Assembly (NCBI GenBank): GCA_000165345.1
Contig: CM000433.1
Span: 736,001-800,000 of the forward strand
DNA length: 64,000 nt
Direction of reading: 5' to 3'
A program made the translations under genes and the position numbers. The notes under the pieces were generated by a model. That model was not told the origin of the DNA. It saw nothing but the letters and a program-made list of their open reading frames with translations, and searched no databases. Positions 16,982-21,482 of the stretch are shown here, piece by piece; positions within the stretch are counted from its first letter, which is position 1; each line of letters opens with the position of its first letter.

Positions 16982-17054
16982 GCCCCCTTAGCTTAGTTGG
17001 TAGAGCATTCGCTTAGTAAGCGAAAGGTCCCGGGTTCGATTCCCGTAGGTGGCT
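16982..17054 (+). tRNA. tRNA-Thr(AGU): tRNA-Thr (anticodon AGU), 73 nt, no intron.
   Basis: Manual cloverleaf: acceptor GCCCCCT/AGGTGGC, D-arm GCTT-AGTTGGTA-GAGC, anticodon arm TTCGC-TTAGTAA-GCGAA (anticodon AGT at 34-36), variable loop AGGTC, T-arm CCGGG-TTCGATT-CCCGT with the GGTTCGATTCC T-loop consensus. Two C.U mismatches remain (4-69 and 49-65). Confidence 0.7.
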
Positions 17055-17108: not shown

Positions 17109-19266
17109 TTAGAAATACAATTTATTTTGAATATGAATGTTACCATTTACATGATCATTATGATTGATTTCATTATTAAAACTATCTTCATCATCAAGTT
17201 CTGCGTGATCAGTATTATTATCTACATCTGTTTCTGCATCAGTTTCCATTTCTACTCCTTCAGCTTGTTCATTGAATATTGGAGGAATTTTATAGCATTC
17301 AGAATTGAAAATTTCCTGGGAACTAATATTATCGTTCTTAACACTTTTTTCAATACGTTTCTTTTCCATTCTCAAAAGGTCTAAATTTAAATAATAGAAT
17401 TGATGTAATATTTCAATGCACCATAAAAATTTATTCCTTGTATGAATCCCTGATATCGGGTCAAAAAAGTTATTATTTGTGACAATTCTACCATTAATCT
17501 GATTATTTTCTGAATCAAAAGTATCAGTACTTGAATATGTTGTACTAGTACTAGTAGTTGTCATACCACTAGTTTTTATTTGTTGATTAAATGAATTATT
17601 AATGTCAAAACCATTATTTAGTCCAAAATCTATTCCTAAATCCATTCCAAAAATATTATTATTATTGTAATTATATGATTCTCCAGTATTATATGTCTTA
17701 AATGATTTTTCTTCTGTTTTACATAAATAATGACTATTCGGAATTTTGTTGATTGCCAAGAAAGTTTTATCTACATATTCATGAAATATTTGTGGAGTTT
17801 TAAATAATGCATATTGGCTCATTAATTCTTCTGGATCTTTAAATTTATCGCTTGAATCATTTAAGAAATTATAATTAATCCAAAAATCATCTTTAATATA
17901 GCTTTTTATTTGTTTTTCAAATTGTTCTTTATGCTTTCCTTTATAATTAATAGCAAGTATATGTATCATAAATCTACATTTTTTACTTTTGAGTATTATT
18001 TCTGGTATTAATGAAGTTTCATTATCCAAATTATTGTTGTTATGTTTGTATTTGAGTAGGAAAATATATTTGGGTTTAATTGGAGGTATCATTTTTTCAC
18101 CTCGAGGATAGCTTAAGTAATATTTATACCATAACAACTTTGTAAAAAAAAGGAAATGTAATTTATATTAATTATATTTAAAAAAAAATATTAAAGAATT
18201 TAAAACTTACCTGTTCCTCATATGGTTGATAATTAATTTTCCAGGGTTTATCAGGACCAGCAAAATGTACAATTTTGTGTCTCATAGTATCTTTCCAATC
18301 ATCTCTTCCTGCCCAAAAATTATAGTCCATTGGCAATTCATCATAAGTACCATTACAATAAATATTTAAAGCGATCTGATCATTAATTCCCCATTTCTGA
18401 ACCAATGATAATGTATTATTCACAAAATTATTTTCTCTCAACTTTTTTAAACTCAATAACAGTACTCCAGCATTAAATGATCTACTTGCTTTGTATTGAA
18501 GGTGATCTATTAGCTCATCTTTTTTTAACCAGTCATTAATAATGTTTGAATTAGTCGAAGATCTTGCTACTATACCACACTCACTCTTTATTTCTGTCTT
18601 GAATAGTTGCCTAAAATATTTTGATTTATTAAAAAAAACAAAAATATATATTAGTTAATTCAATTTTGTTAATATAATTTTTTTAAAATTAATCCTCTCA
18701 AGTTATACATTTAAGTATAGAGAAAACCACATTCTATTTTTATTAGAAACTTACCTTAATGAATGGTTTACGATTGCATCAGTATCCACATATAAAATCT
18801 TATCAATTCTTTTGTCTATCATTTCTGGTAATAAAAGTCTGCACATTGTTGCCTCAGAAACATGCTTTAAAGTCTGTTTGTACTTGATTTTATATGTAAA
18901 AGGATAAAATATTAAAGTTAATTTTTCAGAAAACCCAAGTTCATCATTCAACTTTGACAGCATAGAATAATCACTTGGTGTTACATCCGGCATTGCTATT
19001 ATATGTACATTTGCATATTCTCCCAGACCTAAATTACTATAGATTGAATTGAGCAATGTTGGAAATAATGGAAAAACTTGTTTATCTGATGAAAAAGTTA
19101 TTTCATATTTTACTCTCAAAGAGTCATTCATTGACTTGAATATTGAACTATTTTTTCTGTGAAATATTTTAACACTCGAAATTCCCATTATAAAAGGTAC
19201 TGTAATACATATTATTGCTGAAAATATCACTATTACCAGTGATATTTTCTGCTTCAATGTTGCCAT
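17109..19266 (-). CDS. GT8-family glycosyltransferase (glycogenin/LPS-glycosyltransferase-like) in three exons: 19266..18755, 18610..18211 and 18137..17109. The introns are 144 and 73 nt. Signal-anchor N-terminus and a long N-rich C-terminal extension.
   Basis: Exon 1 carries an N-terminal TM segment and the DXD-region YVDTDAIV. Exon 2 carries NAGVLLLSLKKLREN and HFAGPDKPWK, both GT8 hallmarks. Donors AG|GTAAGT at 18754 and CAG|GTAAGT at 18210, with acceptors TTTTAG ending 18611 and ACAAAG ending 18138, restore frame between the three ORF-track fragments. Each fragment otherwise lacks a start or ends in the GTAAGT-encoded stop. Confidence 0.8.
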
Positions 19267-19380: not shown

Positions 19381-19663
19381 TTTTTGACCTTTAAATTATT
19401 TTTGTCCACATTACTATTATTAATCAAATATTACTTGATAAATAAGCTTGATTTTTTTTTAAATTGGAAGTTGAAATTATTATCCTTCAAATTTCAATAA
19501 TTTTTTTCTTCTTAGATTTAAACTTCTTTTTTATTAAAATATCTCAATTTAATTTATTCTCAAGTCTTGTGTGGATATCAAATAATTAAAGTTTAATACT
19601 TGGATTGCTCAGTTCTTCAATTATCTCTTGACTATTTAATTTTAAAGTTACTTATTGTATTAT

Positions 19664-19707
19664 TTTTAAAAATATTATTATTTTTAAAAATAATAATATT
19701 TTTAAAA
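19664..19707. repeat. Perfect 44-nt AT-only palindrome in the divergent intergenic region between the glycosyltransferase gene and the small Tim gene.
   Basis: TTTTAAAAATATTATTATTTTTAAAAATAATAATATTTTTAAAA. The two halves 19664-19685 and 19686-19707 are exact reverse complements. Confidence 0.85.
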
Positions 19708-19746
19708 TTCTTAGTAATTTTTTTTTTGCTGTCAAACAAAAACAGC

Positions 19747-19774
19747 TTTTGCATGCACCTGCCCTCATGCAAAC
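19747..19774. promoter_or_regulatory. TGCATGCA ... TCATGCAAAC pair about 145 nt upstream of the small Tim ATG.
   Basis: ttttgcatgcacctgccctcatgcaaac. Confidence 0.35.
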
Positions 19775-19916
19775 ATTTTTTTTAATTACACTTACGTGTC
19801 TTTTTTAATGGACACCGGTATTATGCATTGTGGCAGGAAAAAAAATAAAATAAAAATTAATAATAAAACTAATATATGAATATTTTGTAAATATTTTTTT
19901 TTATTTAAGAAAAAAT

Positions 19917-20608
19917 ATGGAAAAATCAGAAAAAGAAGATTCTACCATTAAAGAAGTTCAAACTATTTTGAAGACAGCAGTGACGCAAATAATGAATAAT
20001 GTAAGTCTTAACATAATTAATAACAACAATTACAGCGTAATGCGCAAATATATACATTATAATATTAAATTGATTTAAAATGAAATCTTCTCAAAATTTT
20101 AATTAGTCATCTAATGTTAAATAATGCAATATATTGGTAAATATTGAATAAGAAAGCATAAAAATAAAGAAAAAAAATCTCTTGAATATTTTTTTTTTCT
20201 TGATATATCTCTCTTTTTCAATAACAGTGATCACATGTAAAATATATTCACATATATATATATATCAAGTGATTTAAATTCCAAATATTTGAAATAAATG
20301 AACGTATTTTTAATAAAACTAACCAAAAAAATTTATTTGTTAGCAAGAAACACTGCATTGTTGTTATTTACCAATTTGTATTTACATCAAATGTTCACTT
20401 TTTATTTGAATTACTCTTAGGAAGTAAGAAAAGTCTGTTTTGAACAATGCTTTCAAAGCAAGAAATCGCACTCCCCTTTAAATATATTTGACCATCAATG
20501 TCTTTCTAGATGTATGGATAAGATGTTTCATGCACATTCAATTGTGGAGCAAGCTACTACTGAAAAAGTTAAAGATTTAGGTAGTTCTGAACATATTCAG
20601 AATATTTG
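19917..20608 (+). CDS. Small Tim (Tim8/9/10/13 family, twin CX3C) in two exons: 19917..20000 and 20421..20608. The intron is unusually long at 420 nt. Protein of about 90 aa.
   Basis: Exon 1 reads MEKSEKEDSTIKEVQTILKTAVTQIMNN and is followed by GTAAGT. Exon 2 begins directly after CTCTTAG, with an in-frame TAG immediately upstream and no usable internal ATG. Exon 2 encodes EVRKVCFEQCFQSKKSHSPLNIFDHQCLSRCMDKMF..., that is, C-x3-C, a 15-aa spacer, then C-x3-C, the small-Tim signature. Confidence 0.65.
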
Positions 20609-20873
20609 AAAAACTTTATAGGTTTTGAAATTATTTATATATTATTTTCTTTCACAATTCTCTTTGTCAATGCAACACACTGACATTTTCTTCGCTTAGT
20701 CATTTAATCCCAACATTTATTATTATTGGTAATGCCAATGCAAAACTGACAGATTTTAAGTTTTATTTTAAGAATCACTGCTTGATATAATACAACCAGA
20801 TGGTATTCATCCCAGCTAATTGCATTATAAAAATGAATATTACGATTAAATATATTCATTTGAAGCTTTAAAC

Positions 20874-21482
20874 TTATATCCCATCTCTAGGTAAGGCCCT
20901 CTTACACTCAACCCACTTCCCTTTAAGATAGTGATTACTATAAAATTTGGTAACGTTGTTTACTGCATCAACACTCTCAAATGTTACAAATCCGAAACCT
21001 CTAGGACGTCCATTATTTTTGTCAGTAATGAGTACTGCATCCTTAATATTTCCAAATCTTTGAAAATATATTTTAAATTCTTCTAAAGTGAGATCAGGAA
21101 GCCCACCAACAAAAATTTTACTAACATTCTTAATTCCCTTTGTAACAGCATTGTTATAATTTTCTGGTGTATTTTCATTTTTTGTTATGTCTTCAAAATA
21201 CTCTTTGATCATCAAATTGGTATTTCTAGGTGAAGCTCTTTTGCAGTCCACAACTTTGCCCATTATTATATGTGGGGTAATATTCTGAACAATCTCAACA
21301 GTTTTTGGATCCTTAAAAGTCACGAATCCAAAACCCCTGCTTCTCCCACTTACATTGTCATACATTACTACAGCGTCCAATATTACACCAAATTGCAAAA
21401 AGTATTCCATCAAAATTGATGAAGTTACTTGCTGAGAAAGTCCACCAACAAATATTTTTCCCGACTCTAAATTCATTGTCAT
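20874..21482 (-). CDS. RNA-binding protein with two RRM domains (hnRNP A/B / Musashi-like), 202 aa.
   Basis: There are two RRMs: KIFVGGLSQQVT...RGFGFVTFKD and KIFVGGLPDLT...RGFGFVTFES. They carry RNP-2 (IFVGGL) and RNP-1 (RGFGFVTF) motifs. Confidence 0.85.
   Translation of the reverse strand: MTMNLESGKIFVGGLSQQVTSSILMEYFLQFGVILDAVVMYDNVSGRSRGFGFVTFKDPKTVEIVQNITPHIIMGKVVDCKRASPRNTNLMIKEYFEDITKNENTPENYNNAVTKGIKNVSKIFVGGLPDLTLEEFKIYFQRFGNIKDAVLITDKNNGRPRGFGFVTFESVDAVNNVTKFYSNHYLKGKWVECKRALPRDGI

Follow-up and report, generated by a model that had tools for sequence, protein, structure and literature searches.

Conserved, complementary ends in the long small Tim intron of Cryptosporidium, a candidate for structure-assisted splicing

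Introns of Saccharomyces cerevisiae such as those of RPS17B and RPL7A/B contain zipper stems, helices of at least 6 bp that run from the 5' splice site side to the branch point side (PMC12350175, PMC12311795), with linkers that range from 42 to 85 nt and a primary sequence that is only 20–30% conserved (PMC12350175). The 688 introns of Cryptosporidium parvum have a mean length of 99 nt and a G+C content of 22% (PMC4637869), and Li et al. 2022 (PMC9465071) describe 23 intron-encoded ncRNAs in this species that were suggested to aid intron retention. As for the gene considered here, the small Tims (Tim9/Tim10/Tim8/Tim13; PF02953) resemble one another in a twin CX3C motif, a length of roughly 90 aa and a helix-loop-helix fold. 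Cryptosporidium has a single, homohexameric small Tim, reported to be a hexameric intermembrane-space chaperone with disulfides inside each molecule (Alcock et al. 2012, Mol Biol Evol 29:113, as summarised in PMC5584982).

Here, we analysed the small Tim locus within a 64-kb window (the whole stretch of C. parvum DNA under study, to which all positions refer). Exon 1 (19917–20000, forward strand; 84 nt, 28 codons, MEKSEKEDSTIKEVQTILKTAVTQIMNN) ends in ATGAATAAT and encodes the start of an N-terminal helix, which is interrupted in phase 0 by a spliceosomal intron of 420 nt (20001–20420, forward strand; GTAAGT...TAG, 20% G+C) with its GTAAGT donor at 20001–20006 and a ...CTCTTAG acceptor whose last base is 20420. 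Exon 2 (20421–20609, forward strand) comprises 62 codons followed by TGA and encodes the twin CX3C core (EVRKVCFEQC...CLSRC) and the C-terminal helix. The TAG of the acceptor (20418–20420) is in frame with exon 2 and the first in-frame ATG of exon 2, at 20514, comes only after the first CX3C, which leaves exon 2 unable to start a small Tim alone. The first-pass annotation had read the 84-nt exon 1, the donor at 20001, the 420-nt intron and the in-frame TAG ahead of an exon 2 without a usable ATG from the letters of the window, and all of these were found again here: the layout recurs in other Cryptosporidium genomes, and the model is the same as the existing C. parvum GenBank model, with an identical 90-aa protein. 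Its CDS end at 20608 is moved to 20609, since the TGA stop codon occupies 20607–20609.

The 90-aa spliced product matched the C. parvum entries QOY41849.1, WKS78071.1 and KAL5368847.1 residue for residue (NCBI, UniRef); C. parvum GenBank entries identical to it carry the name Tim10/DDP, and 91-aa orthologues of C. hominis and C. meleagridis share its 90% cluster. Against the Pfam family zf-Tim10_DDP (PF02953) the spliced protein scored 33.0 bits, compared to a gathering cut-off of 22.3, and its alignment reached back to profile position 7, inside exon 1. Exon 2, where a textbook small-Tim core (CFEQC...CLSRC) had been noted earlier, scored 30.9 bits alone. All 12 orthologues compared matched the same family (best E-value 3.1e-10), with the four cysteines invariant among them and K12, E13, V14 and M26 invariant in the part encoded by exon 1. 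The twin motif of the spliced product reads C34-X3-C38, a spacer of 16 residues (F39–Q54, rather than the 15 aa counted at first), and C55-X3-C59; small Tim spacers measure about 11–16 residues.

Yeast Tim10 was the best sequence match of the C. parvum protein among solved structures, and a phmmer search of PDB sequences aligned residues 21–69 with it, spanning the exon junction at 28/29. A profile of the 12 orthologues likewise placed yeast Tim10 on top (E = 3.5e-7), followed by Tim8, Tim13, Tim12 and Tim9. A single-sequence AlphaFold2 model gave a helix-loop-helix with helices at residues 3–43 and 53–82 (mean pLDDT 68.7), for which the top Foldseek match in the PDB was 7cgp_O of the human TIM22 complex, with TM scores of 0.61/0.71 and a probability of 0.93 but E = 0.35; the small Tim fold is supported by the sequence matches to chains of Tim10, Tim8, Tim13 and Tim9. 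Overall, C. parvum carries its single small Tim (Tim10/DDP-family) gene at this locus, gene and model both being in the databases already, and homology marks the product as an intermembrane-space chaperone that acts in the mitosome import pathway. The earlier suggestion of a lone small Tim in a reduced mitosome import pathway is in line with Alcock et al. 2012 (summary in PMC5584982).

The cluster entry of the exact 90-aa small Tim also lists the name 'RRM domain containing protein [Cryptosporidium parvum]', which is borne as well by WRK32562.1, a partial model of 102 aa. The gene convergent with small Tim, at 20874–21482 on the reverse strand, is an RRM gene that is 100% identical to that of C. 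parvum Iowa II. Together with the small Tim match, this identifies the window as C. parvum. The RRM name on small Tim entries looks like a product-name mix-up with this neighbour.

Syntenic loci were fetched from 12 other Cryptosporidium genomes with the RRM gene as an anchor, giving 13 loci in total. The comparison set comprised C. hominis, C. meleagridis, chipmunk genotype I, C. ubiquitum, two C. canis isolates, C. felis, C. ryanae, C. bovis, a C. andersoni-type contig and the Logan assemblies L010 and L013. A tblastn search found exon 2 in all 13 loci, and in every one the intron opens with GTAAGT, closes with YAG and is followed by exon 2 at one shared phase-0 codon boundary. A complete, ATG-started exon 1 of 24–29 codons preceded the donor in 12 of them, the 13th being C. 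canis isolate B, in which the contig ends inside exon 1. Conservation of the exon 1 protein extended, still recognisably, to the C. andersoni-type contig. Thus, conserved protein on both sides, an interior whose length differs between taxa (63–420 nt) and an in-frame stop that is soon reached together characterise this sequence as a spliceosomal GT-AG intron.

Reading on from exon 1 adds 25 further codons before a stop (53-aa ORF, 19917–20078). A read-through isoform of this kind was considered and rejected, as in the intron alignment the C. canis frame stops after 6 codons. A recursive or alternative acceptor at TTAATTAG (20098–20105) was likewise rejected: its use leads to a stop after 5 codons, and its AG is lost in C. 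ubiquitum and L013.

In C. ubiquitum, C. canis, C. felis, C. ryanae, C. bovis and chipmunk genotype I, an intact small Tim lies between the RRM and Glyco_transf_8 genes. It is absent from the called genes of all six of these assemblies, and a search of the protein database returned none for them. The sole small Tim of these species thus seems to be missing from the six annotations, and comparisons based on proteomes may wrongly conclude that these species are devoid of any small Tim. The gene is annotated in the current records of C. parvum, C. hominis and C. meleagridis.

The length of the intron varied greatly between species. It measured 63 nt in the C. andersoni-type contig, which belongs to the gastric clade, and among the intestinal species 195 nt in C. 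bovis, 212 nt in C. ryanae, 270 nt in C. felis, 309 nt in both C. canis isolates, 395 nt in L010, 397 nt in L013, 403 nt in C. ubiquitum, 411 nt in chipmunk genotype I, 414 nt in C. meleagridis, 419 nt in C. hominis and 420 nt in C. parvum. It was longest in the nearest relatives of C. parvum, its length broadly tracked protein identity to C. parvum, and the differences in size fell mostly within the poorly conserved middle. The first-pass description of this intron as unusually long stands: at 420 nt it is about four times the published C. parvum mean (99 nt; PMC4637869), compared to 144 nt (18611–18754) and 73 nt (18138–18210) for two introns of the neighbouring Glyco_transf_8 gene on the reverse strand, both GTAAGT...AG.

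Because the same site and boundaries are found in all 13 Cryptosporidium loci, the intron is, on comparative grounds, old and common to the whole genus. On the usual Cryptosporidium phylogeny, the length series falls along the intestinal lineage as stepwise growth. From these 13 within-genus loci and that phylogeny, we infer that the intron grew rather than shrank in the intestinal lineage. One orthologous intron ranging from 63 to 420 nt, in a genus noted for losing and shortening its introns, offers a clean case in which to study intron growth.

Upstream of the gene, at 19727–19822 on the forward strand (about −190 to −95 from the ATG), we observed a block of about 95 nt with hardly any variation across the taxa from C. 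parvum to C. felis; neither the intron nor other intergenic DNA is conserved nearly as well. Within the block are TGCATGCA, CTCATGCAAA and ACGTGTC...GACACCGGTATT, the first of which we take to be an ApiAP2-type motif. Three hairpins are possible within it, with no variation by which to test their pairing, and Rfam gave no match to 19727–19822. The block is probably a promoter or 5'UTR, and it could also be a small ncRNA.

Between small Tim and the RRM gene, at 20774–20841, lies a palindromic hairpin that scored 26 and 22 bits on the two strands against mir-374, for which the gathering score is 54. This is probably a chance match or a 3'-end hairpin; for C. parvum, PMC9465071 reports no miRNAs. 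A tRNA gene (16982–17054, forward strand; RF00005, 58.4 bits) lies just downstream of the glycosyltransferase gene and was the only Rfam match at the gathering score in the 64-kb window.

Conservation within the intron was profiled on an alignment of the nine long introns. Both ends were well conserved, and the middle (about 20160–20340) was poorly conserved, at 0.1–0.5; the mean pairwise column identity of the intron interior was 0.54. The two highest-scoring 12-nt windows began at 20024 and 20358 and reached 0.94 each, compared to 0.83 for the 5' splice site and 0.54 for the intron mean. Both windows are overlapped by the arms of a long-range stem. The 5' arm (20019–20035, forward strand) has the core AATAACAACAAT at 20019–20030 and the 3' arm (20353–20368, forward strand) has the core ATTGTTGTTATT at 20357–20368, and the two cores are perfect 12-nt complements. 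In C. parvum, the stem gains 3 more bp past a mismatch and a bulge, where CAG at 20033–20035 pairs with CTG at 20353–20355. The predicted duplex energy for C. parvum was −15.9 kcal/mol over the core region, falling to −22.3 kcal/mol in the extended stem. The stem was present in both the MFE and centroid structures and was the sole helix in the RNAalifold consensus, and its mean pair probability in full-intron ensembles ranged from 0.37 to 0.99 across nine taxa (0.96 in C. parvum). No other copy of the arm motif was found in the 64-kb window with up to 1 mismatch allowed.

Complementary end segments were present in the taxa with introns of at least 309 nt, and the stem arms were absent from C. 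felis, C. ryanae and C. bovis. We compared the best duplex between a zone 10–55 nt after the donor and a zone 40–110 nt before the acceptor with that in 500 dinucleotide shuffles, and the best end-bridging duplexes had energies of −20 to −28 kcal/mol vs −9 to −15 kcal/mol in the shuffles. In each of C. parvum, chipmunk genotype I, C. ubiquitum, L013 and L010 (introns of at least 395 nt), no more than 1 of 500 shuffles attained the observed duplex energy; these tests are not independent between species, as the long introns are homologous. The energy of the C. canis duplex was reached by 23 of 500 shuffles, and in C. felis and C. ryanae the end-bridging duplex was not significant relative to 500 shuffles. 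The pairing found in C. bovis was a hairpin in the middle of the intron, which 21 of 500 shuffles equalled. Taking the C. parvum intron alone, a perfect 12-bp helix arose by chance in 27 of 2000 shuffles.

Within the stem, 11 of 16 pairs never varied and 2 of 16 changed on both sides. At one pair, A-U is replaced by G-U in C. canis and by G-C in L010, and at another A-U is replaced by G-U in C. ubiquitum; mismatches comprised one A-C in L010, one in each C. canis isolate, and a U-C in the trio of C. parvum, C. hominis and C. meleagridis. The changes in the more divergent lineages were mostly pair-preserving. Covariation was not significant in this underpowered set, the observed measures being reached by 75–167 of 500 column shuffles. 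The path from the 5' splice site to the branch point in the predicted folds of four taxa was not shorter than in shuffles (17 vs 22.5 ± 9), and we rejected this metric as support, since such closure is predicted for any long A+T-rich RNA.

A second perfect complement, of 11 nt, was found between 20133–20143 (ATTGGTAAATA) and 20365–20375 (TATTTACCAAT). The latter segment shares 4 nt with the 3' arm, and this pairing was conserved only in the C. parvum–C. ubiquitum group. The two pairings would compete, and on the basis of this predicted overlap splicing may possibly be switchable.

Several other explanations of this locus were weighed. The absence of small Tim from the gene calls of six other assemblies would fit a gene model that is simply wrong, whether through a different first exon, translation of the unspliced message or decay into a pseudogene. 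Against this, the GTAAGT donor, YAG acceptor and phase are shared by 13 loci, the exon 1 ORF is complete in 12, the four cysteines do not vary, and homology to Tim10 and to the Pfam family continues across the exon junction, in addition to the in-frame TAG directly 5' of exon 2 and the lack of an ATG ahead of the first CX3C. Furthermore, the published IOWA-ATCC annotation, which carries the small Tim model, declares its introns to be 100% supported by RNA-seq (PMC8744675). Neither the spliced nor the unspliced junction had a match among JGI metagenome contigs, an outcome that is uninformative. We give virtually no credence to an erroneous model, and on its conserved sequence features we regard the model as settled, short of inspecting reads. 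If the gene and its intron are genuine, the intron might have been kept long by a hosted ncRNA, such as a snoRNA, or by a DNA regulatory element to which the conserved blocks belong. The 5' third of the intron was clearly better conserved than the middle, and three blocks are only partly explained by splice signals and the core stem: 20045–20056, which in several species can lengthen the stem inward; 20094–20105, TTTAATTA(G), which 10 of 13 taxa retain, among them C. felis with its otherwise poorly aligning intron; and 20133–20144, which holds the 11-nt complement of 20365–20375. The intron-encoded ncRNAs described for C. parvum in PMC9465071 point in the same direction. However, the covariance-model scan of the intron that the first-pass annotation had proposed gave no credible Rfam match (whole window at the gathering score; 19500–20900 at E ≤ 10, chance-level matches only), and the single gathering-score match in the window is the tRNA elsewhere. 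Moreover, the C-box TGATGA was absent from all 13 orthologous introns and CTGA from the C. parvum intron, as the first-pass report of no C/D-box motifs had it; RNAalifold on the conserved 5' (1–165) and 3' (300–420) parts alone gave an open chain with an energy of 0, with no local consensus structure; and no intron ORF exceeded 43 aa.

An intron-encoded snoRNA was accordingly discarded as a candidate, being without C/D boxes, Rfam match or local fold, although H/ACA boxes are too degenerate to be excluded by motif alone. We consider a hosted element of any kind unlikely. Of the two roles that had been proposed for the long intron, that of an ncRNA host found nothing in its favour in the Rfam, C-box and local folding searches, whereas that of a regulatory element gains some support from the strongly conserved blocks, the best two of which are complementary to each other. 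Those two segments could instead be the relic terminal inverted repeats of a mobile element that enlarged the intron and now has no function. They do form an inverted repeat around a variable, expanded middle, and in C. parvum TTA stands outside each arm, but the flanking TTA is lost in C. canis and C. ubiquitum, the arm motif is unique in the window, and conservation within the intron peaks at the arms, above even that of the 5' splice site, which is the opposite of neutral decay. Cryptosporidium genomes are reported to lack transposable elements, which also counts against such an origin. A mobile relic is very improbable in our judgement.

The case for a splicing stem is that the two best-conserved blocks are each other's complements and are placed where a stem bridging the intron must sit. 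A putative branch-point motif, TTCAC, lies at 20394–20398 on the forward strand, with its A at 20397, in the fourth most conserved window (start 20394, 0.86). Nine taxa retain TTNAC at the corresponding place in the alignment, and this motif is the likeliest candidate for the branch point. The 5' arm begins 18 nt past the donor and the 3' arm ends about 28 nt before the putative branch point, so that in C. parvum the linkers add up to 46 nt (18 + 28) if the branch-point A is at 20397, approximately the size of the whole 63-nt intron of the C. andersoni-type contig. Linker sums ranged from 33 to 61 nt across nine taxa (about 33 nt in C. canis), the corresponding linear distance being about 280 to 396 nt. 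Judging from its arms and their placement, the two best-conserved stretches probably fold the intron ends together for splicing. [quoted passage not shown] We infer that the stem would form in vivo and help splicing.

Taken together, we think it highly likely that this is a single small Tim gene with a genuine, old intron of 420 nt, the ends of which are conserved and complementary in introns of at least 309 nt. More tentatively, and with somewhat more doubt than belief, we suggest that expression of small Tim in intestinal Cryptosporidium may depend on a zipper stem that loops out about 320 nt. If this is true, it would provide a clear zipper stem outside yeasts and would show a route to intron growth in a genome that is otherwise shedding or shortening its introns. 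The end-bridging stem is thus a candidate for structure-assisted splicing in an apicomplexan, and as C. parvum can now be genetically modified, a test of the stem is feasible. The small Tim gene, its model and its biology are already known, the protein having been characterised in 2012; the length series, the zipper-like stem and the annotation gaps appear to be modest additions, of which we found no description in the literature searched.

Among the described systems, the Cryptosporidium small Tim of Alcock et al. 2012 comes from the same organism and pathway and shows no difference at the protein level. Yeast small Tims form alternating two-subunit hexamers, whereas that of Cryptosporidium forms homohexamers (summary in PMC5584982). 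With the intronic snoRNAs and ncRNAs of C. parvum (PMC9465071), the small Tim intron shares retention in an intron-poor, compact genome and a conserved interior; unlike them, it is without boxes or an Rfam match, and its only conserved structure spans the whole intron. The zipper stems of S. cerevisiae resemble the stem described here in linking a stretch soon after the 5' splice site to one a little ahead of the branch point, in introns of roughly 400 nt amid otherwise short introns. The pairing by which such stems are recognised (PMC12350175) was found here as 12 perfect bp plus 3 more, with a pair probability of 0.96. Given a branch point at 20397, which is putative, the C. parvum linker sum of 46 nt falls inside the yeast range of 42–85 nt, and that of C. 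canis, at about 33 nt, is below the yeast minimum. The arms of the apicomplexan stem are conserved at 0.94, in contrast to 20–30% for the primary sequence of yeast zipper stems.
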